Shown here piece by piece: positions 5,361 to 30,338 of a stretch of DNA of 64,000 bases. The notes under the pieces were generated by a model. It had not been told where the DNA came from, did no database searches, and saw nothing but the letters and a program-made list of their open reading frames with translations. Within the stretch, counting starts at the first letter, position 1. Each line of letters begins with the position of its first letter. The stretch is from Dipteris shenzhenensis (taxonomy: Eukaryota), in assembly GCA_047967505.1 (NCBI GenBank), contig CM106538.1. One strand, written 5' to 3'. The position numbers and the translations under genes are program-made.

Positions 5361-6621
5361 GTGCCACTTAGTCTTGTGATAAACATCATACCAAGATGGA
5401 TTTTCATAGGTGCTTTCTCTCTTATTTCACCATTAAATAGTCATATTTACCTAATGAAAGACTACATGAAACGTTAAACCTTACATGTACCCCATTGATG
5501 CAGGAAGATTATGTATTCTTTTAAGGCAGTGGATAATGTGCATGCAAATCCCTTCCAAAAAGTGCATTGCACGAATAAGTATGGACTAAGAGTGTATTAA
5601 AAAGTTAATATCCACTTTGGATATGCATTCCATTTGAAGATATAATAGGGATAGTGTTCAAAGGGGCTTGAAAAAACTAAGACTATATAGAGTATCTAGA
5701 AAGGTTGATGTGAACTCTTACCTAAACAGTATGGTCCTTGATGACCATGACAAATATGCAAGGAATATATGGATATAAAGCATTTGTACTATAAGGAACA
5801 TTGCAATCTGTACATTTTGTAACCTACATGGCTGACTATAATCATGCTATATTCTCCATCAAAGCTTCCTAAGGAACTTGCGCACATTCCAATTTTTAAA
5901 AAATGTCCATATAAAGTCAAGAAGTGTCACATTGATCTGTTGTCAAATATCCATGCCATATATGCTTACTTCTTTATGAAATGATTTGCTACATATATTG
6001 ATTAAGTTGATCACTGATCACCATCTATTTTATGCCCAAAAGTGACTTAACTAAGGAGGGAGAGAATATAAGGGGCATCGTTTCAATACCTCAAAGTGTT
6101 CATAAGATGGTTGTTTAAAAAATAACACATGAAATATAAGCCACAATGGCCAAATATCAATTTTAAAGCCAAAGATCCATGGGATTAAGTTTGATTTAGT
6201 TAATTTTTTATCCATGTAAATACTATTTTGCTAAAAAGTTTAAAGCATTGCCAAGATTCACATCTTTTTGAAGAAAACATACAAAATTATATTATGTTTT
6301 GTTGATAATGTCAAACTAAAATGACGAGCTTGTTAAAAGTTTTCATTTTTATTGTATATATTATATACATTCATTTTCATGACATGCTAGGATTATAGTC
6401 CTCAATACCTTCCCTCAAGATAGGCATAATCATGTTGGCATTCATTTAAGAAGCTAACTTGAGTGGTTTAAGACCGATTGACTATTAGTAACATCATTTT
6501 GTAGTGGATGACCCATCTACTACCTAAAAGACATCTCAACCAAGTCACACACTTGCCACTGAACTAGTGTGCTAGCTAGCGAGTTGAGGATCATAACTCT
6601 TTTAATGCAAAGGGCACAAAA

Positions 6622-7230
6622 GAGGGGGGGGGGGGCATGTACACAAGGGGGATGAGGGAAGGGGGGGCGAGGGGTTGTGCATGGATGCAAGGGGGGATGA
6701 GGAGGGGGGGTGCACATGCGCACAAGGGGGGGTATTTGGGGTGAGGTGGGCGCATACACACAAGGGGGCTGAGGGAAGGGGGGTGGTTGTGCACACACAC
6801 AAGGGGGGTGTTGGGGGCAAGGGGGGCGCATGCGCACAACGAGGATGAGGGAAGGGGGGGTTGTGCATGCACACAAGGGGGGATGAGGGGGGGTGCACAT
6901 GCGCACAAGGGGGGATGGGGGGGGGTTGTGCACGTGCACAAGGGGGGGTGAGGGGGGTGCGCACACACACAAGTTGGGATGAGGGGGGGTTTGCACAGGC
7001 ACACAAGGTGGGATGAGGGGGGGGTTGCAGAGGCGCACAAGGAGGGAAAGGGGGGGGGAGGGTGCAAGGTTGGGGGGTGGGTTGTGCCCATGCATGCAAG
7101 GGCAAGGGGAGGTGTGGTGTGTCCACATGCACAAGAAGGGGGGCATGCAGGTGTGCACACACATGCAAGGGGGAATGGGGGGTGCACGCGTTCATGGGAA
7201 AGGGTGTGTGTGCAAAGGGTTGGGAGGTGC
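6622..7230 (+). repeat. G-rich minisatellite block 2
   Basis: Colinear copy of block 1. Confidence 0.95.
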
Positions 7231-7350
7231 CACTAAGTCTTGTGATAAACATCATACCAAGATGGATTTTCATAGGTGCTCTCTCTCTTATTTCACCATT
7301 AAATAGTCATATTTACCTAATGAAAGACTACATGAAACGTTAAAGCTTAC

Positions 7351-9438: not shown

Positions 9439-11630
9439 GACTTGTTACAAGTGGGTACCATGCTTGTCCTATTTGTGGACCGGGTTTGAAATCGCTTGCA
9501 TGCTACTCCAAACATATGAGGAAAAATGTTTATGAAGGTCATGCTCGATACCTTCCGCTCGACCATCTCGCACGTGGAGGTCAGCTTGATCCACCACCAT
9601 CATATTTGAAGGCAAGTGACTAGATTCAAGCTTGGAAGGTGAATGGAGAGGAATTTCCTCTTGGTATGAAGAGGCTATCGATCTTTCACGAGCTTCCTTA
9701 TTAGGGTCAGTTACAAATCAATCATCTCTTGGATCCCATGCATATCTTCAAGAATGTGGGGGCTACTATTTGGGCACACTTGATTGGTTCCAAAGACTCG
9801 AGAGGAGTGCGAGAAGACTTGCGTGCTATGAATATGATGTCTCGTTTGTGGCCCCAAGTGCATACTTCGAGAAAAGTTGTCCTCCCGAAAGCAACATGGA
9901 TCCTCTCTACGAGGGAGGAGGCGACGATCAAGGTAGACATTGCCTTTTTTCAAACACCGATAGGGTACATGCGTTGCATGAAAGGAGCATTTTCAAAGGA
10001 CAATAAGCTTAGTGGGCTCAAGTCCCATGATTGGCAAAAGGTCTTATAGGTATTCTAAGTATAATTAGTGTACCGATAATCGTGATGCATTAGCATAATT
10101 ATGATTATGTTATATTGTTGACATGACTTCTTTGTTGCTTTGATAGTTCATCCTCCCAATTACAATAAAAGGGTGCTTACAAGAAGATGTTAGAAATGCT
10201 ATATTCAAGATATGTGGTATTGTGAGGTATGCTTACTATCAAATCGCATTGATTGCATTTTCTTCAATTTAAGTTGATTAATCTGTAGACTGATTATGAA
10301 AATATCTTACATGGATATGTGAAATAGGTGGATATCTCAAAAAGAGATCTCCATATCGAGCATCGAGAAGGCTAGGGTGGAATCCATCGAAGCCGTATGC
10401 TTGCTTGAGAAGCACTTTCCCTCGAGCATTACGACAACTCAAGTCCACTTGCTTGTGCACATAGTTGATGAGGTGGCTATTGCAGGTACCATTCATAGTC
10501 GATGGATGTTTTTTCTCGAGCGGTTTATGAAAACTTTAAAAGGATTTGTAAGACAAAGAGAAGGACCAGAAGCAAGCATGGCAAAGGGATGGCTTGTGCA
10601 AGAGTCATTAGTATATATCACAGAGTTTCTTGCATCCACAGATCCCGATATGCCACAAGCTTGGCATAACAAGGATGATGATCGCATCATTGGCGAGGCG
10701 AAGAGAAAATGGAGAAATTACAGTACAAAAAGTACAATGCATTATGGTCATATGGATGACATTTTTGCATGGAACGCATCGATTCAAAGAGAGTCACGTA
10801 TGATTGTGGAGTCATGGCTAACTTCACACAAGATAGCCGAGCAAGTGCTTCGGATACCAATCTTCTCTCCTCATAGTTGGATTATTGTGGAACCATACGC
10901 GACATTTATGAAGTTGATTTCAAATGATTTAGTATTTTCATTCTTGATGTAAAATGGTATAGAACTATTTACAACGGTCCCCATGCGACAGTGAGAAAAG
11001 ATAGTAGCGGTTTCTTTGCAATAGATTCCACTAAACATTAGACCGATGAAAGTGATACTTTTGTTCTTCCCGAGCACTGTGAGCAGGTGCATACTAATGA
11101 TTTAATTAATCAAAGATTTCATTTTTAAAGATCCATTGATACATGTACTTGAGCATAATTTCATATATATAATTGACGACATTCGGCACCCATCTTCAAT
11201 ATAGGTGGTTTTTCATCCGGATCATTTTGATCCAAGATGGTGGTACGTGATCCAAGTTGCACCACGAAGTAAGAAAATTTTTGAAGATAGAGATGTGGAT
11301 ATGGAGATGCCACTACCAATGCCGGATCCAATTGATCCTGATGAATCTAGCGAAGAAGATGAAGATCAAAATATGAGCCAAGAGGAAGATGCGCATAATG
11401 ACATCGCACAGGAGGAAGATGGAGATCACGATATTGAGAAAGAAGACAACGATCATCAAGAATCACCACACTTTATTAAAGAATATGATCAAGTACTTTT
11501 CGGTGAACATACGATGCTAGAGTACGATGATGATATAGGAGATTAACTCAGTATAGAGTTGGAGATAGACTTGTTTGGCACCTTAGACTTGGCTCAAGAT
11601 GAATTAGTTGATGTAAATGCTCTTAATTGA
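9439..11630 (+). pseudogene. CACTA transposase C-terminal half (DUF4218/DUF4216-like), with introns
   Basis: GYHACPICG, DPMHIFKNV, GLKSHDW, QVHLLVHIVDEV...RWMFFLERFMKTLKG...PEASMAKG, acidic tail; GT..AG introns visible. Confidence 0.85.
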
Positions 11631-12412
11631 TTTTTTTCATCTCAAACTTGGACATGAATATATGAGCTTCAAAGGCTTGATGTACATGCTCTCATATTTT
11701 TATTCTCTATGAGATCAAACATGAATGAAAATTAAAAAAAATGTCATTGGAAAAAACTAAATTTTAAGGCCTATATGAGTAAAAAACCTCTCTAGAAAAT
11801 GTCGCTATAAAATAGTATCTCAGTGTCGCTATATAGTGACACTCATAAGTCGCTATATAGCAATGTTTATCTAATGTTGCTATATAGCGACGCTTTATGG
11901 GACATGCTTTTCATATCGACGATTAGCACCCCGCGCACGCTAAACGTCGGTACGTGAACGTCATAATAGGATCCATGTGTAGTAGTGCATGACAAATATG
12001 CAAGGAATATATGGATATAGAGCATTTGTACTATAAGGAACATTGCAATCTGTACATTTTCTAACCTACATGGCTGACTATAATCATGCTATATTCTCCA
12101 TCAAAGCTTCCCAAGGAACTTGCGCACATTCCAATTTTTAAAAAATGTCTATATAAAGTCAAGATGTGTCACATTGATCTATTGTCAAATATCCATGCCA
12201 TGTCAAATATAGGCATAATCATGTTGGCATTCACTTAAGAAGCTAACTTGAGTGGTTTAAGACCGATTCACTATTAGTAACATCATTTTGTAGTGGATGA
12301 CCCATCTACTGCCTAAAAGACATCTCAGCCAAGTCACACACTTGCCACAGAACTAGTGTGCTAGCTAGCAAGTTGAGGATAACTCTTTTTTTATGAAAGG
12401 GGCACAAAAGCG

Positions 12413-13065
12413 AGGGATGCGCGCAAGGGGGTTGGGGGGGTGCACATTCACACGAGGGCGGTTGTTGGTGGGGGGGGGGGGGGGGGATGTACACAAGGGG
12501 GATGAGGGAAGGGGGGGCAGGGGGTTGCGCATGGGAGAAAGAGGGGATGAGGAGGGGGGGTGCACATACGCACAAGGGGGGGTGTTGGGGGTGGGGGGGG
12601 TGCATATGCACAAGGGGGTTGAGGGAAGGGGGGTGGTTGTGCATGCACACAAGGGGGGGTGTTGGGGGCAAGGGGGGTGCATGCGCACAACGAGGATGAG
12701 GGAAGGGGGGAGTTGCACATGCGCACAAGGGGGGATGAGGGGGGGTGCACATGCGCACAAGGTGGGATGACGGGGGGGTTGTGCACGTGCACAAGGGGGG
12801 GTGCGCATGCGCACAAGTTGGGATGAGGGGGGGTTTGCACAGGCGCACAAGGTGGGATGAGGGGGGGGGTTGTGCATGCACACAAGGGGGATGAGGGAAA
12901 GGGGGGGGAGGGTGCAAGGTTGGGGGATGGGTTGTGCCCATGCACGCAAGGGCAGGTGTGGTGTGTCCGCATGCGCAAGAAGGGTGGTGTGCAGGTGTGT
13001 ACACACATGCAAGGGGGAATGGGGGGTTCGCGCATACATGGGAGAGGTTGCGCGTGCAAAGGGAC
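12413..13065 (+). repeat. G-rich minisatellite block 3
   Basis: Colinear copy of blocks 1 and 2. Confidence 0.95.
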
Positions 13066-13485
13066 GTGCCACTAAGTCTTGTGATAAACATCATATCAAG
13101 ATGGATTTTCATAGGTGATTTCTCTTCGCCATTAAATAGTCATATTTACCTAATGAAAGACTACATGAAATGTTAAACCTTACATGTACCCCATTAATGC
13201 ATGAAGATTATGTATTCTTTTAAGGCAGTGGATAATGTGCATGAAATCCCTTCCAAAAAGTGCATTGCACCAATAAGTATGGACTAAGAGTGTATTAAAA
13301 AGTTAATATTCACTTTGGATATGCATTGCATTTGAAGATATAATAGGGATAGTGTTCAAAGGGGCTTGAAAAAACTAAAACTATATAGAGTATCTAGAAA
13401 GGTTGATGTGAACTCTTACCTAAATAGTATGGTCCTTGATGACCATGACAAATATTCAAGGAATATATGGATATAAAGCATTTGT

Positions 13486-16089
13486 TGACAAATCAGGGGA
13501 TCGAGCTCTCCTAGTCATGAGACAACATCCTAATACAACACTAATCTAAGGAGGATGCAACCTAAGTGCAAACATGATGAAGAGAGTGCTCATGACATGT
13601 ACCTCAAGTCAATTAGGTTCCAAGCTAGATTAGCTTTGACTCATAAAGAGAATCTTGAGATAGTGCAAAGTGCTTGATTGATATAACTTCAAATGAACCT
13701 CCCTTTTATAGGTGAGGGTACTTACATCCATATGCTTGCTCACATGTGGGATATCTCCTCCATGCCATGTGGCAGCTTGCTCTTTACTCATACCTTTGCT
13801 CTATATGTGCTCATGGCACCACAACTCTCAACATCTCCCCTTGGTGCCATGATCCTTTGGCTACTGCAAGGTGGTCATATGTGAGTTAGAAGATCAAATC
13901 CTCCCTTGGGTGCTTACATGGCTACTCTCAGGTGGTCAGGTTTGATTTACAAAATATAGGCAAGGTTGGCAAGAATTTTGCTTTTCAATGCTTCATGTCA
14001 ATTGTGTTCGCTTCTTCTCTTAACGTAGCTTGATGCATGATGCTTTGTTGTGCCTTGATGCTTTCTGTGTGGATGCCATGCTTTGTGCTATGGTCATCTC
14101 ATGCACTTGAGCTTTTGGCATGCTTATGACAATGATGTGTGCATCCATGCTTTGATTTATCATTTGTTGCAAAGGTCTTACCAATTGATTTCTTTCAATA
14201 TTGGCAGTGTCTAATTGCTAACAATGATTCTTATCTAACAAGCGCATAGAGCTCAAAAAGGCAATCACTTTTCCTTTTTGGAGCATGTGCAAATTCCTCC
14301 TAGATTGCAAGTTACGGCTTGTCGAAATTTTTGTGAAGAAGAGGTGGCCTTTGATGATGTGGCTTGGCTGTTCACATGCTACTTGCAAGATTGTGCTTGG
14401 CAAGGGCTATATGCTTAGGTGGCACTTAACTAACCCTGAACCTAAGCCTAACCATGGTTTCTTTTGGGTTGCTTGACCATTGACCAAGGTTGAACTAACC
14501 CTAGTGACTAGAGACAACCATAGTTACATCTTATCCTATGCCACATGGCATTTTTCTCGTACCTTAGAAAGAAACCTTTGATCCTACAGAGATCTTGGGC
14601 GACGACAGCGTCACGGTTTCAGAGGCCTGTGGCATGATGGAAGGTCGCAAGGAGCTCGATGGAGGCACTTGAGACTGAGCATGGGAGTGTAACTATGCTT
14701 TTGCATGACTCATGAGAGGAGAGGCTATGAGCAGAGCATCACGACTGGCTGGAGTTTTCTTAGTTGATGGAGCTTGGAGCTGCTATGAGCGATGTAGTTG
14801 GAGGCAGTGCTTGCTTTGGAGCTATTTGGTTGCACAGTTGCTGCTTTTGTTTTTTATTTCCCACAGCTGTATAGCTAGGCAAGGCTTGTTGGGTTGACAA
14901 TCACGGAGCTATCGGCTCATTGGACCGATGTGGGCTAGTCAGCAAGGATCATTTGGAGGATGGCATTGGAGGGATCCCATGAGCGACACTGCTGGAGAAT
15001 GGTTTTTTTGACTGTGCAGAGAGGAGCGAGCTATTGATGGAAGTAGCAGTGTAGGTGATGTAGATGTGCTATTGTGTAGATGCCAAATCCGTGGACATTT
15101 GGCAATTGTTGGACGAGTCACTCGGTGTAGAAGTCAGAGGTTGATGGGCTTGGACTGGCGAGGTATACGTGGTGTTGCTTTGGCATTGCTCACTGAACGT
15201 TTGTCAAAGGCATGTAGGGAGGCTTTATATGCCATTGCTTTGGCATTGCTCACTGAACGTTTGTCAAAGGCATGTAGGGAGGCTTTATATGCCATTGCTT
15301 GGCATAGGAGGCTAGGTGGTCTCTCGATGCTAGATCTCTTGTGGGCGACTAGTGATGCTAGAGGCTTAGGAGGAAGAACACTACAAATAACTTACAAGAG
15401 CCAACCGAGCTATGATTTCAAACGAATAAACAAAGGCTATGTTCTTGTCTAGGAACCTGAAAATACTCGGGCTACTGCAAATAGATATCTTCTTTGATGT
15501 CGCCATACAGAGACAACCGTTGGAGATCGTAGGAGATGGAGTCAGCTGTTTGGCTGCTTGCAAGCTTTGGGGCTGCTCCACAAGCTCTTGCTTTCTTTCT
15601 AAAATAATCTTACTAAAAACACACTCAAACAAAATGGACCTAAACCTCTTTCTAAGGAGAAGACAAATCTCTCAACAAAAATCTCTCAAGACTTTGAAGA
15701 ACCTTAAACTAATCTGGACTTATTAGCTAAACCTGCTCTAATACCATGACAAATCGGTGGATCGAGCTCTCCTAGTCATGAGACAATATCCTAATACAAC
15801 ACTAATCTAAGGAGGATGCAACCTAAGTGCAAACATGATGAAGAGAGTGCTCATGACATGTACCTCAAGTCAATTAGGTTCCAAGATAGATTAGCCTCAT
15901 AAAGAGAATCTTGAGATAGTGCAAAGTGCTTGATTGATATTACTTCAAATGAACCTCCCTTTTATAGGTATGGGTACTTCCATCCATATGCTTGCTCACA
16001 TGTGGGATATCTCCTCCATGCCATGTGGTAGCTTGCCCTTTACTCATACCTTTGCTCTACATGTGCTCATGGCACCACAACTCTCAACA
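13486..16089 (-). mobile_element. Non-autonomous LTR retrotransposon (TRIM/LARD-like, 2.6 kb)
   Basis: LTRs TGACAAATC...CTCTCAACA at 13486-13833 and 15747-16089; TSD TTTGT (13481-13485, 16090-16094); PBS TGGTATTAGAGC (tRNA-iMet type) at 15735-15746; PPT AAGGGGAGA at 13834-13842; no recognisable gag/pol inside. Confidence 0.93.
15175..15300 (+). repeat. 60-bp perfect tandem duplication inside the LTR element
   Basis: TTGCTTTGGCATTGCTCACTGAACG...GCTTTATATGCCA occurs twice. Confidence 0.95.
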
Positions 16090-16927
16090 TTTGTACTATA
16101 AGGAACATTGCAATCTGTACATTTTCTAACCTACATGGCTGAGTATAATCATGCTATATTCTCCATCAAAGCTTCCCAAGGAACTTGCACACATTCCAAT
16201 TTTTAAAAAATGTCTATATAAAGTCAAGAAGTGTCACATTGATCTATTGTCAAATATCCATGCCATATATGCTTACTTCTCTATGAAATGATTTGCTACA
16301 TATATTGATTAAGTTGATCACTGATCACCATCTATTTTACGCCCAAAAGTGACTTAACTAAGGAGGTAGATAATATAAGGGGCATCATTTCAATACCTCA
16401 AAGTGTTCATAAGATGGTTGTTTAAAAAATAACACATGAAATATAAGCCACAATGGCCAAATATCAATTTTAAAGCCAAAGATCCATGGGACTAAGTTTG
16501 ATTTAGTTAATTTTTTATCCATGTAAATACTATTTTGCTAAAAAGTTTAAAGCATTGCCAAGATTCACATCTTTTTGAAGAAAACATACAAAATTATATT
16601 ATGTTTTGTTAATAATGTCAAACTAAAATGACTAGCTTGTTAAAAGTTTTCATTTTTGTTGTATATATTATATACATTCATTTTCATGACATGCTAGGTT
16701 TATAGTCCTCAATACCTTCCCTCAAGATAGGCATAATCATGTTGGCATTCACTTAAGAAGCTAACTTGAGTGGTTTAAGACCGATTGACTATTAGTAACA
16801 TCATTTTGTAGTGGATAACCCATCAGCCAAGTCACACACTTGCCACTAAACTAGTGTGCTAGCTAACAAGTTGAGGATCATAACTCTTTTTTTATGCAAA
16901 GGGCACAAAAGGTGGGCATAGAGCTAG

Positions 16928-17586
16928 TCATGCCTTTGGTGTTCCACCACATGAACATGGATTATTTGCCATCTAGGATCTCAACAAACATCAAAGAAGT
17001 GTAAATTTCTTACACAAATATAATGCATAGGAAGCCCTTATTATCCACCTCGATCCCCAATGAGTCAGCCTATTGTAGAATCAAAAAGTGAATGTAGTCA
17101 CCATGTCAATAGCATAAAATAATATGGTCAAGATCCATGGTATATTGATAGTGGTGTATCATAAGACAAGCCATAAGGAATGGTTTTAAAAAATGCTACC
17201 TTTGGAAGGATCTAAAATTGGGATATATACACCTAATAATACACCAACTCCTATCCATGAAAAAGGTATAGTACTTATGGATAATTTTATAAGACAAAAA
17301 GGATTGGAAAATTATGTACTGATCTTTGTTCCAAAATTCCAAATATTCTCTTGTTAGCTGGAAAAAGGATAGAGAGAATTTATAGAGTTATTTTCATGCA
17401 ATGAATGCATGATTAAAGACCAATACAAAGGTTATCAACTTGTTGGAAATTCAATAAAAGGCGGTAGATTCTATATAATGCTAGCATCAGTACTACATCA
17501 TCATTCAATGTTATCAATCTATGTCAGGAGGTCGCAAATGAGCTTTCAAAATTATGGCATAAAAGATATGGACATGCCAACTTCAA
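16928..17586 (+). mobile_element. Degenerate Ty1/copia: zinc knuckle, protease, GAG-pre-integrase remnants
   Basis: SCLWC, DPWYIDSG (~17131-17156), KLWHKRYGHANF (~17550-17585). Confidence 0.75.
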
Positions 17587-18043
17587 CTAGATTGCTTGGC
17601 CAGCTGGGCTGTTGATGAATACTTTTCTCTTTTGCTATCTTGTTGAGGTTCACATGAGTCACGTTGTCAGAAATGATGCAGAAGATTGATGTTCAATTGC
17701 ATGCAACCTTTTGTAGAGATTTCGTTATCATCCAGTCCTGCTTGCACTTGATGTTGTTCATGTCGACAATAAAACGTAGTTTTTCTTTTTTTCGGAGGAA
17801 GACAAATTCTTATTCTTTGCACTGTAAGCAAATCTATTGTCATTCCACTTCGAGCGAACGACGGGGAGATGTATTTCAGAAATGTATAAATAATAAATCA
17901 AAACCAAATTGAGACATAAGCATGCAACTGTGATAGGAATAATCCAAACCCAAAGCTGCATTGCATGTACGACAAAAGTTCCAGCACCATTTGCAACTTC
18001 ATTGGATCCCTTTTTTTGAAGGCACAAATGTTTATTTTTTGGG

Positions 18044-18443
18044 TCAAATTATGTTCCTACGCTTTAGGAAATAGTACTTCCGCGCTCTAGCCGGATGGCC
18101 CTCGAGCATGTTGTAACCTAATGGACCTACTGTGTTGTGGCTCCTTATGTAGTATTGCTCTAAAGTTTGTGCTTTGTCTACAGTGTCTGTTGTTTCCAAA
18201 ACTTTGATTTCAAAATTTTCTTTGAAGGGCTTGTAACGCTGCAAGTCCTCTTTCATTTTCGCCGGTGGTTTTTTATTGTGCTGTTTGATCCTCCGCGGCA
18301 GGTCCGTCGTGCTCCCTATGTATTTTCTGTTGTTGGGCTTGCACGTGATGCAGTAGACGACGAGGCTCGCACGATTCCCTTGCGCGGGCGCTTCAGTGGA
18401 GGCTCTTCCTTCATCTCGAGGCTCGCGTCTTTCAATGTCGTAC
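18044..18443 (-). CDS. GIY-YIG endonuclease domain, probable terminal exon of the HLE2 element
   Basis: The reading frame extends upstream of the listed ORF: LVVYCITCKPNNRKYIGSTTDLPRRIKQH...AQTLEQYYIRSHNTVGPLGYN (VVY/YIG, catalytic R, E, N). It is preceded by branch point GACTAAC and acceptor TTTACGCAG at 18444. Confidence 0.85.
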
Positions 18444-18466
18444 CTGCGTAAACATTGACAATTACG

Positions 18467-19370
18467 TTAGTCATCGAGGTTTTCGGTCTTTTTTTTTTCG
18501 TTTGAGGTCCATAATAGAATGCATTTATTTACTTGCCCTGGTTTTTCTCTGTTGGCGTTAAAGGATCGTTTCCAATACCGAAGCGCTCCTCGTATAAGTC
18601 CCTGTTGAAAATATACAAGCTTCTCTATTATCATCACCGCGTGCGTCGCGTCGTGCGTCCCTCCAAATTGTTCCATGAATTGTTCGAGTATAGCCGTTCC
18701 TTGATCGCGCGTCGTGTCCCTCAGCAACTCCAAGGATACGTTGTACCCGTAATGCAGTAGCTCGCATGCATACGCTGTGATCCCTTTCGTCTTCGTGTCT
18801 AGTAGCTTCTGCCCCTCCAAACTTTCCATCATCCTATCGGTCTCATCGAACTCAATGTCAAGCTCGACAAGGATCTCTTTGAGGAGTCCTACAGGAGAAG
18901 TGCAATCCATGATGAGTTTGTTGTTCTTGCAACTCGTTAATTCTTTTTCTCAATTGTTGCGTTTTTTTTTAATTTTCGGAAGCATTACGTACCATTTGCG
19001 AATCTCAAGCCTCCCGGCTCTCTTTTAGCTGGCAAACGCCTATTGCAGTTGTCAATGAAGTCGCGTAGTTCCGCATACGTGTTGAAGCCGTTGATGTAAG
19101 CTCCCGGACGTTCTCCTGCATTGTTTGCTAGCCGGAATTGCTTTGTGGTTAGGAAGAACCTCCTCTTTGCTGGTGGAGGTTTTGTTGCCTTCGCGTTGCT
19201 TTTGTATAGCTCAAATAGCTGCTTGCAAGCACGACTTTTTACACCATCTTTTCAAATGAGCTGTCTTTTTAAATCTTCAAGAATAAAAGATTCTTTCATG
19301 CTGGTGGAATTTACCTTGTCTGCGTCCATGTCTTATGCTACAATGTCCCGAGCTTTCTGATCCTCTGCAC
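18467..19370 (-). pseudogene. Probable internal exons of unknown function between helicase and GIY-YIG
   Basis: Long frames ~19370-18992 (two stops explicable as C>T; ends at donor G|GTACGT) and 18910-18467 (147 aa); no domain recognised. Confidence 0.5.
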
Positions 19371-19480
19371 CTGTTCTCGACAACAGACAAGATATTAAAA
19401 CCATTTTCCTTGCACGCATGTTTGACGTAACATATTCATGACTTGTCTCTGCCTTTTTCAATCTCTGGTAGTGAATACCT

Positions 19481-22400
19481 TTATGCACGTGGTTGTGTTG
19501 TCGGTTGTGAGAACTCTCGTGGAATTGGTCTGAATATGTCTGGATGTGGGCAATGTAGTATGCGCAGCCTCGTTCTCTCAGTCACTCTGGACAATTCTCT
19601 CAGTCACTCTGGACAACATCACGTATGCTAGGCCAGGGGCAAACACTCCTCGAAATATGAGCAGCGCTTTGTTGGATATGGTTGCGCCTTGGGATTTGTG
19701 TCCCGTGATAGCGTATGCTAGGGTTAGTGGAAATGTGGACTTGTGGAACCATTTTCCATTTATTGCCTTTCGCTGATGCTTCGAGCGTCGTAATGTGAGC
19801 ACGGCCGCTGTTGTGTCCACGACGACAGTGATACCGTTGATTTCTCCCCTGCTAGTTGCATCGATGCTCTTGATTTTGCACATTGCTCCATTTGCGGCAC
19901 CTATTGTGAGGTCGATGTTTTCCGTTATCATTGCCTTCGCCCCCACGCAAAATTTTCCTATCTCGTTGAAGCTTTTGTCCTCCAACCATTCTTTGAGAGC
20001 TGGTTCGCTCGCGGTGTTACTGTGTATTTGAACATGCACAATCATCTCAGGAGTGTTGAATTTCTCCACAAGCTCATCGTTGAAGGTAGCGACATCGGCT
20101 CTGTGCGTGCAAATGATGGTTGTTTCGGCATCGATGAAGTGGCATGCACCTTCCTTGTCGACAATGCACTGCCCCAAACAGTCGGAAATCTCGTCAGTTG
20201 TGGGCGTCCTGAGTCTTATGGTATGCAAGAATGCCAGGAACGGCATGTCTCGTGCATGTCGCACCGAGAATTGCATGTGGTACATTTTCGCTTGAGCCCA
20301 GTGCGCGGAGGACGTGATGTGGCACGGCTCGCAGAGATCCTCGCGGTGTTTGCAGAATGGCGGTAATTGCGCCAGGTCACCAAAAATTATGAGCACACAG
20401 ACAACGTGCAGCCCCGAGCTTGTTGAAGCTAGGCTTTAGAAGACTCTTTGTTGTTCTACTGTCAATGCGGCATTGGCGACGGTGCGAAACTTGGCCATTT
20501 TTTCCAACATCCTCGCACGTGTTGGCCCTTCGACGGTTTGCTGGTCGATGTTAGGCACTTCCATCGGGTAGTCTCGGATGATCGCAACCTTTTGCAATAT
20601 CATATTGATCAACTGGTCTGTGTGGTCAGTCGCTAGCAAGTTCCTTTGCGTGTATTCGGTCACATACATCTCGAGGTCCTCGTTGCTCAATATGAGGCCG
20701 CGCATTTGGCATTCGACAAAGTAGGATCCAGCTGTGTTGGCAGGTGATATGAGCTCCGTTTCATTCCTGAAGCTGAGTTTTCGCAAGAGCACGTTGTAGA
20801 AGTACCCCTCTGGTTGATGTCCTGGGTGGTAGTCAGTGAATCTGACTACTCGCTCACATTTTGCGATCCTGTTGCCTAAGAGGTCAAGACCGCCGACCGT
20901 TCCACGTTGCGTTTCCTTGGGCTTTCGGATCACATATTGCCTATGGTAATCGTAGAACGTGCTATCCTCGATGACGCTCAGTCTCCCGCAGTATATGTCG
21001 ATCGGGTGCAGGGTGACGTTGTTGTTTCGCGAGATGATGCGCTGTCTTAGAGATGGTGGCGAGGAGTCGACATAGTGAACGCTCTCGCTCCTTGTGATTG
21101 TTGGTATCTGCATGATCTGCATGCAGTTTAGCGCGGCCTCTATTGGAGAGGTTGGTTTTGATCTCGGGGGGGTCACTCATCATATGTAACCCTATCACGT
21201 GAGTTCAACAAAAGGATATTTTTTATTTCTGAAATTTACAGAAATAAATATACATAAGGGACTATTTAAAATAGTTTTGGAAAAAATTTACAGATTTGTA
21301 TAGAAAAGGGGTACATTTTATTAATGAAAAATTTACACAAATAAGGGATTTTAGAAATATGCCTTGAATGCACGTGGTATAGAGGGTTTATACATAGTGA
21401 CCCCCCCGAGGTTTTGATAGGAGGCTTGCGGCGAAGAGTTTCAGCTTTACTTCGTCGAGATGTTGCAACCCCAAACGTGAGGCGTCTTCTGAACGGATGT
21501 TCAGTTTGCCCATTGGTTCAGATTTCATCGTATACTTGAGGAGGTAGTGAGAGATTGAAGAATTTGTCACCTGCTGTATGTTCATGTGTGCACCCCACAA
21601 CAGTAACACAGAAGGGTGGTAAGGGATGACGTTTCGGTGCTCATCTCCCGGCCGGTAATACAACCAACATTGCGTTAGAGGGTCGAGGATGGGTTCATAT
21701 TCTGGCTGTGTTGCAAAAGGGAAGCCGTGCTTGCAACTGTGGTGTGACGGTCCGATGTAGCACGCTTTCCTGCATACGTGCAATGGCTTCCTGAGAACTA
21801 GTTCTCGCAGCCTTGTGTTTCGAGGATCCAGGGCCTCGTCCCTAGGGACGTAAGCCGCAATCTCATTTGCAATTCGCTGACGGTCATCATGGTGGACCCA
21901 CAATATGACATGGGCGTGTAGGGAGCCCCTGTTTTGTATCTCATAACGAATGACATGGTGTTGTATTCGGCCAAGCAGACCATCGGATGAAAGCAAATGC
22001 TTGCGCATGAACATGTGGAAGCGTGCGTGGAAAAGTGCCACGCATTCAATAGGACAGTCCTTCCAAGTGAATTGCGCATTATTATAATGTGTTGCGATGC
22101 TCTCGATCACATTAATTTCTTGCCACCGTGTATCGGTGACCTCGTCTGCAGTGAATGTCAGAAAGAAATCTGGTAGGCCCCAAGCATCGACCATCGTTAT
22201 GAGGTCCTTCAGTTGCCGTCGATGCCACGATGGGGACCCCGGCATTGTTGATGGCATGCTGTAGCGAAGCACGTGTCTCATTGCGTCTTCATCGGTCGTG
22301 GCAGGGTTGGCTTTCCTATATTGGTCGATGTCTCGTTGCAAGCATGTAGAGTTGCTTGAATTGGCAATCATCACTGCCTGTTTTAACTGGAACATGATCA

Positions 22401-23378
22401 ACAAGTACGGCTTGTAGAGTGTGTAGATAGAGAATAAGGTGCATATTCTCATTTTCACATAGTTGCTGAACTGTATGCAGCCATCATAGTAGCCCCGTCC
22501 GAAAGGAAACAGGAAGGGGAACACTGCTGACTCCATGGTTATGTCAGCGCACGCACTGCCAGCTGCTGGTACTCCGTCGACGTGGAATGAAGCGACCCTC
22601 TCTGAAAGCATTTCTGTACCCCGTAGCTGTATGGAGGCAAACTCATACTTGTCCCTTGCATTAAAGGCGCGACGGTTCGCAGGGTCCACCATGTTTTGCA
22701 AAAGCAGGAGCTCAGGCTGAGATTCCGCTATTGACATTAACTCAAAGGGAGCTGTCTCATCGTGTAGTTCCAAGATACCTGCAATGGTTTGAGGACTCAA
22801 GATGCACATACCCATCTTGATGTCCGCACGCTCTGCTAAAGAATTGTACTTGCGCAATATTGGATTGTTCTTGATGTTGTATGCGAGCACACCTGACAGC
22901 TCGTTCGTCACGATTTCTTGAGCTGAGCTTAGTGGGACGTTTCGCCAAGATATCAGAGGATTGTCTAGAAGTGACCTTCGATCGAGTGTGCCACGAGCAA
23001 TCGCATTTGAAGTCGTGGTAGCTGAAATGGATATATCTATGATGCTTAGCAGTTGCGTGTGGAGGTGGTTTGTTTTAAGCAACTGCCGAGAGTACTGTGG
23101 CATCAACCGCACAATGTATCTGCTCCGCTGGGCATCTCGTGTGCAGCTTTGGCACTTCCAGTAAGTCACTCACATGCCCATATTCTCGCAGGCATCCAAA
23201 AGTATCATGTTTCCGAGTGCGGCGCTGTGGCTCGAGATGCCTATGCCTTGCGAAGAAACGATCCTTTGGTTTGCAGACAGTAGCATGGTTATGCCACAGA
23301 CACCGCAGATTTGAAGGCTAGAGAAAATAGCCACGCAATTACTAACCCATTGCTTGTATCTATCTGCGATGGTCAACC
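19481..23378 (-). pseudogene. RepHel transposase (CxxC..CxxC, HUH Rep, PIF1 helicase), disrupted
   Basis: ICGVCG/KCQSC; FPFLFPFGRG; PGSPSW; GLPDFFLTFT; EIQNRGSLHAHVILW; YLLKYTMK; FGDLAQLPP; FPLTLAYAITGHKSQGATI; AYVMLSRV. The pieces join in one frame once the MITE and a 22-bp duplication are removed; stops at 23170 and 20436. Confidence 0.93.
21163..21410. mobile_element. 248-bp MITE with 15-bp perfect TIRs and 8-bp TSD
   Basis: TIR CTCGGGGGGGTCACT (21163-21177) / AGTGACCCCCCCGAG (21396-21410); TSD GTTTTGAT at 21155-21162 and 21411-21418; AT-rich interior. Confidence 0.95.
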
Positions 23379-23379
23379 A

Positions 23380-25879
23380 TGATGATGCCTCGTACTCCAG
23401 AGCAAAATCCAGTTGCAGAAAAGATGAACCGTACCATTCAAGAAAGGTTCCAATGCATGCTTTCCAATGCAAGTCTTTCTGGTGGTTTACGGGCTGAGGC
23501 AATGAAGCCTGCAGTGCATGTGATCAATAGATCACCTAGTAAGAGTTTGGATGGTGGTATTCCTGAAGAGGCATGGAGTGGCAAGAAGCCCTCTTACTCT
23601 CATTTGCGTATATTTGGGTATGAGGCATATGCACATGTGCCAAAAGAGCTTCGAAAGAAGCTAGATCCTAAGTCTAGGAAATGCATCTTTCTGGGTTATG
23701 GTGAAAGTGGAGAGATGAGCTATCGTCTCTGGGATCCAGAAGCAAAGAAGATCATACGCAGCCATGATGTGGTCTTCAATGAGAAAAAGATGCATAAGGC
23801 ACCCATGAGGGATGTGGAAATGAGAAAAATAACTTTCCAGGATGTGAATCCACCTACACATGTTGATAGACAGCAAGCTGTCCATGCACCAAGTGTGCAA
23901 GAAATGGTACCACCAAGTACTCCCATAGGTACACAATCAAGGGTAGATGATGGATCATCTATTGGTGGAAATGATGAGCCAAATGTGGCTGATATGTAAG
24001 AGGGACAGCAAGCTGAAATGCCCTTGAGAAGATCATCTAGAGTGTCTAGACCGCCTGATAGGTTTGCTCCAGGGGTAGACTATGTGATGCTTACTGATTG
24101 TGGGGAGCCTTCTTGCTATAGAGAGGCTATGATGCGTGAGGATCAACGCAAGTGGGAGTATGCTATGCAATCAGAGATGAGTTCACTTATGACGAATAAG
24201 ACTTGGGACTTGGTTTCTTTGCCACATGGAAAGAAAGCATTGCCATGTAAATGGGTCTACAAAATGAAGGTCACAGGTGATGATGTGCCTAGGTACAAGG
24301 CCCGTTTGGTTGCTAAAGGGTTCAAGCAAGAGAAGGGTGTGGACTTTGATGAGATATTCTCTCCGGTTGTGAAGATGACCACACTTAGATGCATGCTTGG
24401 ACTAGTGGCATCAGAGGATATGGAGCTTATGCAGATGGATGTCAAGACAGCTTTCTTGCATGGGGATTTGCATGAGGAAATTTACATGGTGCAGCCGGAA
24501 GGCTTTGAAGAAAAGGGCAAAGAGCATTTAGTTTGCAAGCTGAAGAAGAGTCTCTATGGTCTTAAGCAAGCGCCTAGAGAATGGTATCAGAAGTTTGATG
24601 CTTTCATTCGGTCCCAGGGTTTTAGAAGGAGTGAAATTGATCACTGCCTCTACACTAAAAGGGCTAAGGATAATAGCCTCATAATCCTGGCACTATATGT
24701 GGATGATATGCTATTGGCTAGCAAGAATACTTATGAGCTAGATGCATTGAAGGCCAAGTTGCATGAGGCCTTTGATATGAAGGATTTGGGATTTGCAGGT
24801 CATATTCTTGGTATGCGCCATCACGCGTGATCGGAGTAGGAAACTCCTTTGGCTTTCACAAAAAGAGTATGTTACAAAAGTATTGCAGCGTTTCAATATG
24901 GAGGGGGGGAAGGCAGTGAGTACTCCATTGCCTCCATATGTGAAACTGAGTCATTTAGATAGTCCCAAATCAGATGAGGAAAGGGCCATGATGGCTAAGG
25001 TTCCTTATGCATCAGCAATTGGGAGTCTTATGTATGCTATGATAGCTACTAGACTAGACATTGCATTTGCAGTGGGAGTTGTTAGCCGGTATATGGCTAA
25101 TCGAGGAAAGAGGCATTGGGAGGCAGTTAAGTGCATCATGACGTACATGAAGGGTACCAAGGAGATGTGCATTTGCTTTGGTAGAGGAGACATGCGTGTA
25201 CTTGGGTACACAGATTCAGACTATGCAGGGCATGTGGATAGTAGGAGATCCACTTCTGGTTATGTGTTCACCTTTGCAGGTGGTGCAGTGTTGTGGATGT
25301 CTCGCGCATAGAAGTGCGTTGCTTTGTCTACCACAGAGGCTGAGTATGTTGCAGCCATAGAGGGTTGCAAGGAGGCTATATGGCTTGATCGGCTAGTGGG
25401 AGATTTGGGGATTCATACAGGTGTACCGACATTGCATAGTGATTCCATGAGTGCTATTCAACTAGCACGGAATCCGGTCTTTCATGCAAAGACCAAACAC
25501 ATTGAGGTCAGGTACCATTTCATCAGGGAGGTACTTGAGGACAAGCGCATAGAGCTTGTCAAGGTTCATACAGATGATAACCCTGTAGATATGCTGATGA
25601 AGAGTCTACCTAGTCAGCGGTTTGAGTATTGTCGTGTATTGATGGGCATTGGATAGTATGCTCACTGGTTGTTCTCCCTTAAAGGCACATTGTCCTTTAT
25701 GTGGGAGGTTGTGGGGGTTAAAGGTCACTGTGCCTTAAGCCTGGTTATGTAAAATACTCAAACACATATATAAATGAATGAAAAAGAAGATTAGGGTGGT
25801 TCTGCACCCACCAAACTTGTGTGGCTCTCTGTCTCTCTCTCTCCTTCTTCCGTTCTTGCTTCCGTTGAGAGCACTCATA
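23380..25879 (+). mobile_element. Ty1/copia, 3' half (copy A): partial integrase, RT, RNase H, PPT, 3' LTR 25710-25879
   Basis: TPEQNPVAEKMNRT, KLDPKSRKCIFLGY, YKARLVAKG, QMDVKTAFLHG, LYVDDML, YTDSDYAG, KHIEVRYHF; PPT GTGGGAGGT; 170-bp LTR followed by GGTCC; stops and a +1 frameshift near 24818. Confidence 0.95.
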
Positions 25880-27141: not shown

Positions 27142-27410
27142 GCCAGTGTTTCGGCCTCGGAGAAGAGAATACGTATTTTTGTTCCCCTCTTTCTTGTTGT
27201 TTTTCTATCTTGTTTCGCAAGCCCTCTTCCCCTATTGTTGCCCCCTAGCCCGAGTCATCAAAGCCTTCTCCAGATTGAACCGGAGTTTAGATATAGAGCT
27301 CTAGGACCAAGCGTAGCCAAGAAAACCGCCAAACGCTTTCCCGTAAGTCGAGCGGCGATGTTGCTTGCTCCACGGCGCGGGTGGGCCGAGGGGAAAGCCG
27401 TGGCTTTCGC

Positions 27411-30338
27411 TATTGCAACAACATGATCAAATACCCCTGATACATGTAAGGGATACAAAGTCCCACACTTGGCACCCCTGGCCAAAAGCATAGAGCCCTT
27501 CTGAATTTTCCAACTCTGAAAGCCAAAAGTGGTGTGAAAACCAGCATCATCTAGCTGACCCACTGAAATAAGACTCTTGGTCAGCTTAGGCACATGTCTC
27601 ACATGTTTCAAAACAAATGTAGACCCATTTGCAAAAGAAAACTTTATGTCACCTGCTCCCACTATGTCACATGCATAGTCATTTCCAAGATGCACACAAC
27701 CTATCTTTCCACTATCATAAGTGGAGAACCATTCCCTATGGGGAGTAACATGGAATGAAGTACCAGAATCCAAAATCCAATCCTGGGAATATGCATCATC
27801 TGAAGTGGTAAGCAACTCTGTAGATAAAGTAGACATGAAGAGAACATCATTGTCACTATCATGTGTGACTGCATTGATCTCCTCGATCTTCACTTTTCCT
27901 TTGTCCTCCCTTGGACTCTCTTCCTTTTGATATGCACCCCAATTTGCATTCTTTTTCTTATCCTTTTGCTCTCTTTTCAACTTGTAGCAATCCTTTTTCA
28001 TATGGCCCTTCTTGCCACAATGGTAACACTCAATGTTCCATGCCTTGGATTTGCTACGAGACTTCCCTCTTTCTTGGGACTTCCCCCTGAACTGTGATCT
28101 GCCCCTTTGCACATTTAAGGCTGCATCCTACTTGTTGCCATACATAGACTTCCGTCTAATCTCCTCGGCCAACAAGCTACCCACAACATCATCAAATTTC
28201 AGTACTCCACCAGGTGCAGAGTTACTGACAGCTGTACGGAAGGTATCCCATGAGGATGGCAATGAACATAAGAGAAATATTGCCTTAGTCTCCGCATCAA
28301 AATTCATTTTTTGAGCCTGAAGTTGGCTGAAAATAATATTGAATTCATTCAAATGAGAAGCAATGGAGACCCCTTCCTTCATCTGCAGCTCAAACAACCT
28401 CTTCATGAGGTAAACTTTATTAGAGGCAGTTTCCTTCTCATAAGTGGCACACAGTTTCTTCCACAAATCTTCTGTAGTCTGCTCATTTACTACTATGAAA
28501 TAAACTGACTTTGCAAGATGAAGTCTAATAGTAGACTTTGCTAATGCATCCAACTCATTCCAATCATCCTCAGACATATTTGCAGGCTTAGCTTCGATCC
28601 CTGCCAAGGGTTTAATCTGCTTCTTTTGAATAAGCACATCACTTATTTGTTCTTTCCACAAAGAAAAGTTTGTCCCATCAAACTTTTTAATGTTGAAAAA
28701 CTCCTTTTCAGACATGGAAGAGGATGCCATGATGCAAATAAAGCAAAATCCCAAATGCTAGTGCCTGCAAGAGAGAATCACACCAAATACCAGGTGCACC
28801 CAAATGTGTATGCCACAATAGTGTGAAATATCACCAAAACTCAAAGCTCAAAGCATCAAAAGATGCATCTGACTCATGTGCATATACTATGCATCCATAT
28901 GAGCAAATCTGGCTCAAAAGAAAATGCCAATAAGTGCCAAATGACTCAAGCATAAACACCGTCCACTAGCATATGCATCAATAATATCTCATCCAAGAGA
29001 GCATAGCACTATTAGTGCATCACCTGCAATGTGTCAAAGCTATCCCTCAGCATAAAATAGCATCCATGTGCAAAGCGTCCATAAAAAAATAACATCCCAC
29101 AAGGCAATTTGGGCCTATCAACGCATCCAACAAGGACCGCAATGCATCCAAATGGCCTATAAATCATCCACTGCAACCCAATGCATACCACGAATGAGCG
29201 CACACTGCTCAAACTGCAACCAGAGTGATCTGCATAAGGTATGCTCAAGAAATCATAGTCCCACAGTAATGAGCGCTACTGAAAATAGAACCTGAGATGC
29301 TTCAAAACATGGGCGCCATTGCATAATCGGACTCAGCAAGAAAATCTGCAAATATCTCTCTTCTGCCAAAACTCCAAAATCCCAACCGATGAGTGAGAAA
29401 TGGGAGTCAACACTTATCCACTGCATGGCATAAATCTAAGGTTTCAAAACCTTAGTATGAAAAATGCATAACAGAGAGACGAAATCGAATACACAAAGAT
29501 TTATAACTCTGAAAATCCTCCACCGAATCACGCAAGAACTGATAGGTAGGGGTTTTTGGGCGTCCGGAACGCAATGGGACAGACGGTTTTGGAAACAGTG
29601 GTCTCAATCACTGGGTCCAACACACGGACTAAAAAACGTTTTTTGAAACAGAGCTGTTTGTAAACTCCACCGGAGTGTGAATGATGAGCAACATAGAAGT
29701 TTTAGGACCTCCTAAGTCCACCGGAACTGACAGATCTACAAATGGTTGCTCCAAACTTGAGTTCCAACACCTGGGCAAAAAACGCAGGAACTGACACAAT
29801 GAATCAGAAATCCAATGAAATGATCCCAGATTCAAGAATGAAGGTGTTTCCAAGCTCCTGAAGTAATGTGGACACCAAAAGCAAGCAATAGTTGCCTCTA
29901 CAAGTCAATACGGAGTCTCTATCATCGAACGGAACAGGGAAAAGCTCAAAAAACGACTTTTTCTTTGAAACCACTTAACAGGCTCTCAAAACCACTTTGC
30001 AAAGCCAAAGTGACTTTTCCAAAGGTTCCTCCAAGGTCTCTGCACACTCGGATGCAAGTAAAGTCACCCACAAAGCTTCCCACAGAGCTTCTCCTTCCTC
30101 CCACAAAGCTGCTGAGCTTCCAAGCATTCACGCATGCTCAGCTAGATCACCCGGGCTCTGATACCAGTTGTGAGTGCTCTCAACGGAAGAAAGAACGGAA
30201 GAAGGAGAGAGAGAGACAGAGAGCCACACAAGTTTGGTGGGTGCAGAACCACCCTAATCTTCTTTTTCATTCATTTATATATGTGTTTGAGTATTGTACA
30301 TAACCGGGGTTAAGACACAGTGACCTTTAACCCCCACA
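27411..30338 (-). mobile_element. Ty1/copia, 5' half (copy B): 5' LTR 30169-30338, PBS, long leader, gag, protease
   Basis: PBS TGGTATCAGAGC at 30155-30166; gag KKFDGTNFSLWK, knuckle CYHCGKKGHMKKDC, protease WILDSGTSFH; LTR flanked by GGACC (= GGTCC in element orientation). Confidence 0.95.

Follow-up and report, generated by a model that had tools for sequence, protein, structure and literature searches.

The closest described counterparts of the element treated here come from a survey with HELIANO (Nucleic Acids Res 2024, PMC11417382), the available portions of which report Helitron-like elements of the HLE2 group from many land plants, with counts in Table S10 of 111,638 for Sequoiadendron, 3,367 for Taxus, 555 for Sphagnum and 442 for Allium cepa, among others. 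One HLE2 family from Sphagnum magellanicum, HelenSM92, bears a GIY-YIG nuclease domain described as 'captured and transposed', and the same account proposes DUF6570, lying N-terminal to the HUH endonuclease (Rep), as an HLE2 marker, without saying so of every HLE2. The stretch analysed here, 64,000 nucleotides of contig CM106538.1 from Dipteris shenzhenensis (GCA_047967505.1) and referred to throughout as the window, holds an element of comparable make-up on its minus strand. Positions 17585-23388 probably hold one copy, mutated and lacking its 5' end, of an autonomous family of Helitron-like rolling-circle transposons that is very abundant in a land plant. On this view the family belongs to a distinct clade outside the canonical Helitrons (HLE1) which has kept the GIY-YIG as an accessory gene; the gene would then be no chance neighbour and no part of a foreign element nested in the copy.

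HelenSM92 and the window's element are both non-canonical Helitron-like elements of land plants that carry a GIY-YIG domain besides the Rep-helicase protein (RepHel). They differ in that short terminal inverted repeats and TT insertion sites are reported for HelenSM92 (PMC11417382), to which the window copy, its 5' end lost, is likened by description only, and in that the window family is far more abundant in the sequencing runs used. Helitron2 of Chlamydomonas reinhardtii and Selaginella, as described by Bao & Jurka 2013 (PMC3627910), has RepHel only, with no AP endonuclease, and the named members of the window's clade are likewise green algae; it is defined by a hairpin at each end and by terminal inverted repeats that are asymmetric, in contrast to the window copy, whose 3' end has no significant hairpin and whose 5' end is missing. 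Helentrons (Poulter 2003; Thomas et al. 2014, PMC4067079) share a non-HLE1 RepHel, a second nuclease and a Rep motif of the RGS-H type, but their nuclease is an AP endonuclease fused to the RepHel C-terminus, whereas that of the window is encoded by a separate small GIY-YIG gene. The proto-Helentron of Phytophthora infestans (Thomas et al. 2014, PMC4067079) ends in CTAG and has no endonuclease fused to RepHel, as in the window, where CTAG is followed by TT; it is nonetheless from an oomycete, measures about 14 kb, carries SET among other genes and inserts between A and T, and it too is likened by description only.

An earlier examination of the letters alone (hereafter the sequence-only reading) had raised the possibility of novelty, which falls away with the description of land-plant HLE2 with GIY-YIG in HelenSM92 (PMC11417382): the combination of RepHel and GIY-YIG is already published, and the element is not a new kind. 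Its mention of GIY-YIG domains in some green-algal Helitron2 elements finds no support in the available portions of two papers, of which Bao & Jurka 2013 (PMC3627910) describes GIY-YIG in a viral Mariner element and none for Helitron2, and Lopez-Cortegano 2023 has the term only in a figure-legend list of domain abbreviations, with no tie to Helitron. GIY-YIG is otherwise described from Penelope-like elements, including those of plants (PMC9033089), and from rotifer Terminons. What the present locus adds is another land-plant family, of very high abundance; an orthologous-looking nuclease gene that recurs beside divergent RepHel relatives; the homing-endonuclease affinity of that nuclease; and a RepHel clade without DUF6570 whose connection to either major group the trees leave open.

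The family layout comprises, in order, a Rep with its HUH motif and two tyrosines, a conserved linker, a Pif1-like helicase, about 1 kb of open frames without assignment, a small stand-alone GIY-YIG gene, about 460 bp and a 3' end of ...CTAG(TT). In the window this corresponds to minus-strand stop-to-stop frames of 593, 246, 285, 88, 160 and 140 codons between 17.6 and 23.4 kb, with Pfam matches in the first (Rep) and last (GIY-YIG) and in none of the other four. The Rep and a complete GIY-YIG on the same strand, as claimed in the sequence-only reading, were thus recovered by Pfam (Helitron_like_N, E 3e-24; GIY-YIG, E 5.5e-16), and its coordinates of 17587..23378 agree closely with the limits of 17585-23388 found here.

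These limits derive from contigs of four public sequencing runs placed on positions 16000-25000 at a likeness of at least 80%; 20 of the 24 runs listed contain part of the stretch, the best (share 0.43) being a DNA run of a coded organism. Contig depth is not copy number, and only cover, bridges and ends were used; no weight was given to the lower depth seen over the nuclease region. Every bin of 17505-23524 is covered by contigs of all four runs, while 17204-17504 has no cover in any of them at this likeness. Loose contig ends stand at 17585 in runs X12 (1 contig) and X18 (3 contigs), and the repeat is therefore taken to end there. On the right, homology to the Rep N-termini of the database relatives P0001, P0002 and P0003 extends to 23385-23388 (tblastn), where their residues 27, 20 and 98, respectively, are reached. 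Read on the minus strand, the 3' end consists of ...CCAGCTGG (17600-17607), a 9-nt spacer, CTAG (17587-17590) and TT (17585-17586); the terminal TT of the common sequence fits a T-rich target without proving one, and shuffled versions of the last 146 nt fold equally well (DNA fold, z -0.07), so that no hairpin is recognised there.

That the family is extremely numerous in at least one plant is evident from run X1, in which 19,526 contigs match the 9-kb stretch, part of the neighbouring copia fragment included; no second copy or fragment was found in the window itself (blastn, word size 9). Contigs of the RNA-labelled runs X12 and X18 cover the element, nuclease region included, but a multi-copy DNA repeat would look alike and no transcription is inferred. 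Further contig joints (17689->22866, 18452->21414 and 20635->23100) look like internally deleted derivatives, and differences between contigs and window are dominated by the transitions C>T and G>A. Fifteen of the 20 runs that contain part of the element are labelled air metagenome, which airborne pollen or spores of the host plant would fit.

Since contigs span the whole stretch as one repeat with a sharp stop at 17585, the GIY-YIG lies inside the element. It is accordingly very improbable that the domain belongs to a Penelope-like retroelement, or to any other element with ends of its own, nested in this copy. Such an origin has some circumstantial footing, as Penelope-like elements with an endonuclease (EN+), the Dryads, are described from some conifer genomes (PMC9033089), and the window is full of nested transposons, one miniature inverted-repeat transposable element (MITE) having landed inside this very copy. 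However, neither a reverse transcriptase nor any other Pfam family was found in the three downstream open reading frames (ORFs) or in 12 further frames of 17658-19581 on both strands, contig cover is unbroken between the helicase and the 3' end, the same gene stands beside RepHel in unrelated contigs, and the fold and sequence of the nuclease are nearest I-TevI. A separate Penelope-like element, named in the sequence-only reading as a finding that would overturn it, is thus not what surrounds the nuclease.

The Rep ORF matches Helitron_like_N over its residues 260-423 (21901-22392) with 86.7 bits against a cut-off of 28.9. Its HUH motif, RGSLHAH, is found at 21910-21930, and a Y-x3-Y pair (HYLLKY) aligns with the two invariant tyrosines of the clade relatives, so that an HUH Rep with an HxH motif and two catalytic tyrosines is followed by a Pif1-like helicase in the same reading direction, the arrangement that characterises Helitron-like elements. 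The N-terminal extension of the Rep contains pairs of cysteines that are invariant in the clade alignment, and the linker between Rep and helicase is also conserved in the clade, bearing the motif VRFTDYHP...FYN and matching 19 related loci at E < 1e-10.

The helicase ORF itself has no Pfam match at E <= 0.01, because only its C-terminal part is present. It aligns with residues 1083-1363 of P0001 (tblastn E 1e-48), a full-length relative of 1393 amino acids (aa) and 37% identity in which Pfam recognises PIF1. P0001 maps onto the window in three blocks (residues 27-702 to 23385-21427, 713-969 to 21140-20400 and 1083-1363 to 20393-19596), and its residues 970-1082, about 113 residues from Walker A to motif II, have no counterpart there. 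The PIF1 helicase of the sequence-only reading is therefore sustained in its orientation and C-terminal part, and is wanting from Walker A to motif II. The deletion point falls at 20395|20396, exactly where an X12 contig, of another coded organism and 96-98% like the window, has 339 extra nucleotides; it is also without 256 nt corresponding to the MITE and one target copy. As that contig has the extra 339 nt and skips the MITE, better copies of the element exist.

The copy in the window is dead. On its 5' side the Rep start codon, the 5' untranslated region and the 5' terminus are lost, with a copia integrase fragment abutting at about 23390, and an in-frame TGA at 23170-23172 cuts the Rep N-terminal extension off the main ORF. 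At the end of the helicase a 22-bp tandem duplication shifts the frame, homology to P0003 resuming in another frame at 19523-19594 (tblastn), and one X18 contig is without 22 nt at 19573. The MITE, bounded by perfect 15-bp terminal inverted repeats (CTCGGGGGGGTCACT) and an 8-bp target duplication, GTTTTGAT, at 21155-21162 and 21411-21418 that would suit a hAT-type element, splits the Rep frame, and P0001 continues across the gap from residue 702 to 713. Contigs in runs X1, X12 and X18 join 21153 to 21410 and thereby bypass 256 nt; the MITE is a separate repeat family, as its cover falls below that of the surrounding Helitron in X1 and exceeds it in both RNA-labelled runs.

A HMMER search with the Rep frame against 1.84 billion representatives returned 2546 hits at E <= 1e-3, 162 of them at E <= 1e-30 and the best at 3.8e-121. 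Among the best 150 of these matches, 39 relatives of at least 700 aa were scanned with Pfam, and Helitron_like_N was recognised in 37, with PIF1 in addition in 28; one showed no family and one the helicase part only, and OTU occurs in one. Most of the long relatives without PIF1 are under 900 aa. Neither GIY-YIG nor DUF6570 (at E <= 1e-5) was found in any of the 39, and AP endonuclease (Exo_endo_phos) was absent from these, from the ORFs of the window and from 22 ORFs of distant loci. The sole named members of the clade are green algae, Edaphochlamys debaryana (two) and Prasinocladus malaysianus (one), the others being derived from metagenome or run contigs. Independent assemblies repeatedly give full-length relatives (P0007-P0045) on contigs of 6.6-9.5 kb, close to the length of an entire element; these may be repeat-collapsed contigs or free circular copies.

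Placement of the lineage relied on trees built without Repbase or HELIANO reference sequences, using 14 HLE1 proteins related to P0004 (including Quercus, Lotus, Ananas, Sphagnum, Mucor and Anopheles) and a second reference set of metagenomic RepHel ORFs, 14 of 22 with DUF6570. The Rep trees resolve into three groups, namely HLE1 (support 100), the window clade (99 with 24 rows and then with 42) and a DUF6570 core (99), and the links between groups are short and weakly supported. A helicase tree was rooted on giant-virus Pif1-like helicases, 11 of the 22 viral-contig loci retrieved with the RepHel alignment, which had the helicase part only, were mostly GVMAG-labelled and in no case contained a Rep; it yields one Helitron-like clade (99) with an open fork into the same three groups, the window falling in a clade of 12 rows (99). 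HLE1 is excluded at 100 in all three trees, two of Rep and one of helicase, so by sequence relationship the element can firmly be placed outside the canonical Helitrons, and the sequence-only reading is not upset on this count. With HLE1 it does share transposase architecture, rolling-circle logic, a CTRR-like 3' end (CTAG) and a short palindrome 9 nt upstream, but it differs in the Rep motif (RGSLH versus RGLPH) and in its match to Helitron_like_N (87 bits in the window versus 203), and it has no RPA gene.

The relation to the remaining groups is less settled. Holding the window clade and the DUF6570 group together is not rejected (approximately unbiased test, p 0.518), and the best quick tree puts the window clade with HLE1 at a support of 36. 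DUF6570 is absent from the read-through Rep of the window and from P0001-P0003 (hmmscan E <= 1), and their N-termini compare with DUF6570 regions at an hhalign probability of 7%. The DUF6570-bearing HLE2 used here (metagenomic loci L034-L063) have the Rep motif by which they were found and the Rep-helicase layout in common with the window, and differ in bearing DUF6570 in 14 of 22 ORFs, in forming a separate clade and in having no GIY-YIG. The serine of the RGS-H motif, correctly read from the window as distinct from the RGLPH of canonical Helitrons, occurs in 21 of 26 relatives found by HMMER without regard to the motif (2 have Thr, 1 has Ala and 2 are outside the pattern), versus RGLPH[AV]H in 11 of 14 HLE1 references, the other 3 being outside the pattern used; the DUF6570 loci also have RGS-H, yet they were retrieved with that pattern and are not independent. 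This Rep signature is common to non-canonical elements. Of the proposed membership in the Helentron/Helitron2 clade, then, the part that stands is the position outside HLE1 (support 100), whereas AP endonuclease and DUF6570 are both lacking and the data neither uphold nor reject a union with DUF6570-type HLE2.

The GIY-YIG domain of the window matches Pfam PF01541 over profile positions 3-74 of 78 with 59.1 bits against a cut-off of 22.6, and it has every one of the motifs VVY, YIG, RR..QH, E and GYN. Upstream, one base out of the GIY-YIG frame, is a second frame (18316-18528) that begins with ATG and contains KRPRK. The 160-codon frame preceding the nuclease gave no Pfam family, atlas recognition below threshold and no likeness to the corresponding regions of the related loci L004, L006 and L020; the 88-codon frame gave no Pfam family and no homologue in related loci at E <= 1. 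The GIY-YIG shares its frame with a longer upstream frame in the window (18044-18949), in L006 (3724-4818) and in L004 (5975-7510), with a single stop between the two in the window and L006; the upstream frames are dissimilar. The agreement in frame may be fortuitous (about 1 in 27) or reflect a larger protein made via stop read-through or a short intron. In one X12 contig, window positions 18443-18991 (549 nt) are replaced by 354 unlike nt, with break points at GT (18992/18991) and just after AG (18444), which may mark a subfamily whose middle part differs, or else splicing; no in-frame splice pattern could be derived from the damaged window copy.

Comparable genes were sought beside other RepHel relatives through a pattern scan of metagenome contigs that returned 65 loci encoding them. 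Many of these represent the same place assembled repeatedly (L001-3, L009/L020, L026-28, L008/L012, L014/L015 and L030/31/33), and after collapsing them five clade families extend at least 1.1 kb past the helicase: L004, L006, L020 (=L009), L026 (=L027/L028) and L018/L019. A GIY-YIG stands near RepHel in four of these five informative families, downstream in three. Pfam confirms the domain in L004, L006 and L020 (6e-7, 1e-10 and 4e-8), and a hidden Markov model (HMM) from these three and the window finds the degenerate one of L026 (E 8e-10) and no other locus, the next best E being 0.37; L026 was placed in the clade by protein similarity only, with no tree. Within the 42-row Rep clade, the nuclease-linked rows and the window are spread over different subclades, and the divergence of their GIY-YIGs (31-38% identity) is about that of their Reps (26-38%). 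Besides GIY-YIG, nothing downstream of the helicase is common to the window and L004, L006 and L020, and in these three whose ends may not be element ends, no convincing terminal inverted repeats were found.

It is because homologous GIY-YIGs with intact catalytic residues occur beside RepHel in four of five families that the gene is read as a retained accessory gene and not as a one-off capture. Helitrons are known gene capturers, and this plant family alone could have taken up a GIY-YIG fragment as passenger DNA unrelated to the biology of the element; no intact GIY-YIG gene exists in the window copy, and HELIANO words the Sphagnum domain as 'captured and transposed' (PMC11417382). Such an event is nonetheless improbable in view of the intact-catalytic homologues beside relatives that are 26-38% identical in Rep and belong to different subclades. 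Furthermore, a word-based search of 5.8 billion proteins, in which longer proteins were not searched, returned just two matches of comparable length, each of them a fragment from this same family, and no cellular plant gene that could have been the source.

What kind of nuclease was retained is indicated by a profile of four sequences (the window, L004, L006 and L020), for which the best solved structure is the catalytic domain of I-TevI (1mk0; HMM E 4.6e-7), in an alignment that covers the catalytic positions, with Slx1 and UPF0213 far behind. An AlphaFold 2 model from the same sequences (pLDDT 82.9) has the order strand-strand-helix-helix-strand-helix and is predicted to adopt the alpha/beta fold of GIY-YIG domains. 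I-TevI occupies Foldseek ranks 1-3 (TM 0.67-0.79), with UvrC and Slx1 next, and the model superposes on 1mk0 with TM 0.68/0.76, an rmsd of 1.7 A and a Foldseek E of 5.6e-4. Tyr8, Tyr19, Gly21, Arg29, His33, Glu73 and Asn89 are invariant in the four-sequence alignment, so that the catalytic set is complete. The nearest kin of the nuclease are I-TevI and homing endonucleases of phages, and not the enzymes of Penelope-type elements.

This affinity lends weight to another explanation, in which a free-standing homing gene of the I-TevI/Seg type invaded the ancestral element, maybe repeatedly, and persists as a selfish passenger without serving transposition. Indeed, 92 phage records match the GIY-YIG (tblastn, best E 7e-11), many of them annotated as homing endonucleases, and identity to phage proteins so annotated is 33-41%. 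Of nine phage proteins retrieved (190-330 aa), seven bear a homing or GIY-YIG endonuclease annotation and the other two are hypothetical, and several are encoded beside terminase, head, gyrase or ligase genes. GIY-YIG clusters of giant viruses appear as language-model neighbours, which serves as a lead only, and the position and strand of the gene vary among relatives. The phage enzymes share their catalytic core with the element-linked proteins, but they possess a linker and a C-terminal DNA-binding part and reside in introns or phage gene islands rather than in a eukaryotic transposon. The element-linked ORFs, by contrast, are of about 105-130 residues, comprise the catalytic core and a short basic tail, and end 15-20 residues after the core with no separate DNA-binding domain recognised, leaving them without the part that confers site specificity in homing. 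The catalytic residues have been kept across deep divergence within a transposon lineage, and homing sites are not known from plant nuclear genomes. A selfish passenger is, on balance, a somewhat unlikely account of the gene. In a small tree the four element-linked GIY-YIGs lie on one side of a branch and the nine phage homing endonucleases on the other (support 67/83), which is compatible with a single origin of the former.

Several observations weigh against a retained accessory gene of a defined lineage. By raw score, a cyanophage homologue (63 bits) stands about as near to the GIY-YIG of the window as do those of L020 (65) and L006 (57), and the monophyly of the element-linked genes is weakly supported by the 67/83 just given, leaving room for repeated acquisition of homing-type genes. 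The window frame has no in-frame ATG, the domain being complete and the gene not intact, and the closest database proteins, P0005 (92%) and P0006 (78%), are themselves damaged. L018/L019, of the Edaphochlamys subclade, lack a GIY-YIG, their copies diverging about 500 bp past the helicase, and L020 and L026 have theirs on the opposite strand, kilobases distant and perhaps outside the element. The absence of GIY-YIG from the RepHel polypeptide of all 39 long relatives is expected of a separate gene, and it leaves four loci and the window as the link between the two. Finally, strict membership in HLE2, Helentron or Helitron2 is not demonstrated.

As for what a retained GIY-YIG enzyme might do, Helitron transposases act by 'peel and paste', their Rep nicking and joining single strands while the helicase peels off the transposon strand. 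The RepHel of the present family would perform rolling-circle transposition as in these characterised enzymes. The GIY-YIG protein, with its I-TevI-like core and no recognisable DNA-binding domain, could nick duplex DNA at the target or the donor, and the nick would provide a loading point for the 5'-3' helicase and expose single-stranded substrate for the HUH Rep. Such a supply of duplex nicks is possible rather than probable; if the enzyme is neither this nor a selfish passenger, it might, for instance, prime second-strand synthesis or resolve intermediates. The recruitment of a different nicking nuclease, advanced in the sequence-only reading, is plausible and is strengthened by the recurrence of the gene in relatives; its target-opening role is surmised. 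The same nicking job has been proposed, by equal inference, for the Helentron AP endonuclease, which according to the available portion of Heringer & Kuhn 2021 was never given a function.

The retention of an unrelated second nuclease beside RepHel through deep divergence would suggest that duplex nicking is useful to rolling-circle transposition, and a protein of about 110-130 residues would offer a much smaller test case for this idea. A bolder reading, which we regard as unlikely, would make the clade a third deep Helitron-like lineage of the green lineage, extending from chlorophytes to land plants and coequal with HLE1 and DUF6570-type HLE2, with, as its hallmark, an ancestral, selected and stand-alone I-TevI-like GIY-YIG nickase that derived from a viral homing gene, lost its DNA-binding domain and works with RepHel. 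If true, it would represent a second independent case, beside the Helentron AP endonuclease, of a rolling-circle transposon adding a duplex-nicking enzyme. The abundance of the family matters in any event for the annotation of large plant genomes, as tools tuned to canonical Helitrons would miss it.

Table 1. Coordinates of the element, its insertions and its immediate neighbour in the window, and of the GIY-YIG genes near RepHel in related metagenomic loci.
Feature	Sequence	Position	Strand or placement	Evidence
3' terminus of repeated unit	window	17585..17640	-	contig cover, loose ends, sequence
GIY-YIG nuclease ORF, 140 codons stop to stop; catalytic domain ~18131-18361	window	18044..18466	-	Pfam
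160-codon open frame, same frame as GIY-YIG, one TAA between	window	18467..18949	-	ORF list
88-codon open frame between helicase and 160-codon frame	window	18985..19251	-	ORF list
22-bp tandem duplication (units 19573-19594, 19595-19616)	window	19573..19616	-	sequence
Pif1-like SF1 helicase, C-terminal part from GD..QLPP motif to end	window	19578..20435	-	tblastn
Rep-helicase linker	window	20436..21176	-	tblastn, P0001 residues 713-969, E 2.5e-29
MITE insertion, 248 bp at 21163-21410, with flanking duplication	window	21155..21418	.	sequence
Rep (HUH endonuclease) ORF, 593 codons	window	21388..23169	-	Pfam, HMMER
Rep N-terminal extension with CxxC pairs	window	23170..23388	-	tblastn, read-through translation, clade alignment
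Ty1/copia fragment (integrase end, SH3-like domain, reverse transcriptase, RNase H region)	window	23390..25656	+	Pfam SH3_retrovirus 7e-32, RVT_2 1e-70
GIY-YIG	L004	7124-7510	same strand, 2.1 kb downstream of helicase	tblastn 4e-20
GIY-YIG	L006	4495-4818	same strand, 1.15 kb downstream of helicase	tblastn 3e-12
GIY-YIG	L020	9719-10300	opposite strand, 4.3 kb downstream of helicase	tblastn 6e-15
GIY-YIG, degenerate	L026	5137-5328	upstream	tblastn 6e-8

The surroundings of the element are those of a land-plant nuclear genome, and the window holds decayed retrotransposons nested in one another. Where the Helitron meets the copia fragment both are cut, and a deletion or rearrangement is therefore likelier than a clean insertion. 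Further copia-type frames for gag, the Pol beta-barrel and reverse transcriptase, broken by stops, occur on the minus strand at 27258-28757, 34014-36734 and 42366-43217. The clearest sign of a land plant is an uninterrupted pentatricopeptide repeat (PPR) frame of 887 codons at 47281-49944 (-), with a faint, below-cut-off match to an E motif at its end (31 bits, none past 1e-3), which looks like an intact gene of the organelle RNA-editing type.

To the left of the element, three overlapping minus-strand frames of 200-290 codons each are open at 4551-5440, 6520-7306 and 12306-13139; no Pfam family was found in the one frame tested per place, G exceeds C strongly (skew 0.21-0.28), and these places may be repeated, compositionally biased sequence. 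A short tandem duplication at 15145-15390 gives a stretch of about 20 residues twice in two frames. A match to class-3 lipase (E 1e-6) lies at 1900-3018 (-), and a DUF4218 frame (E 2e-23), typical of genes of CACTA-type transposons, is present at 10323-10952 (+).

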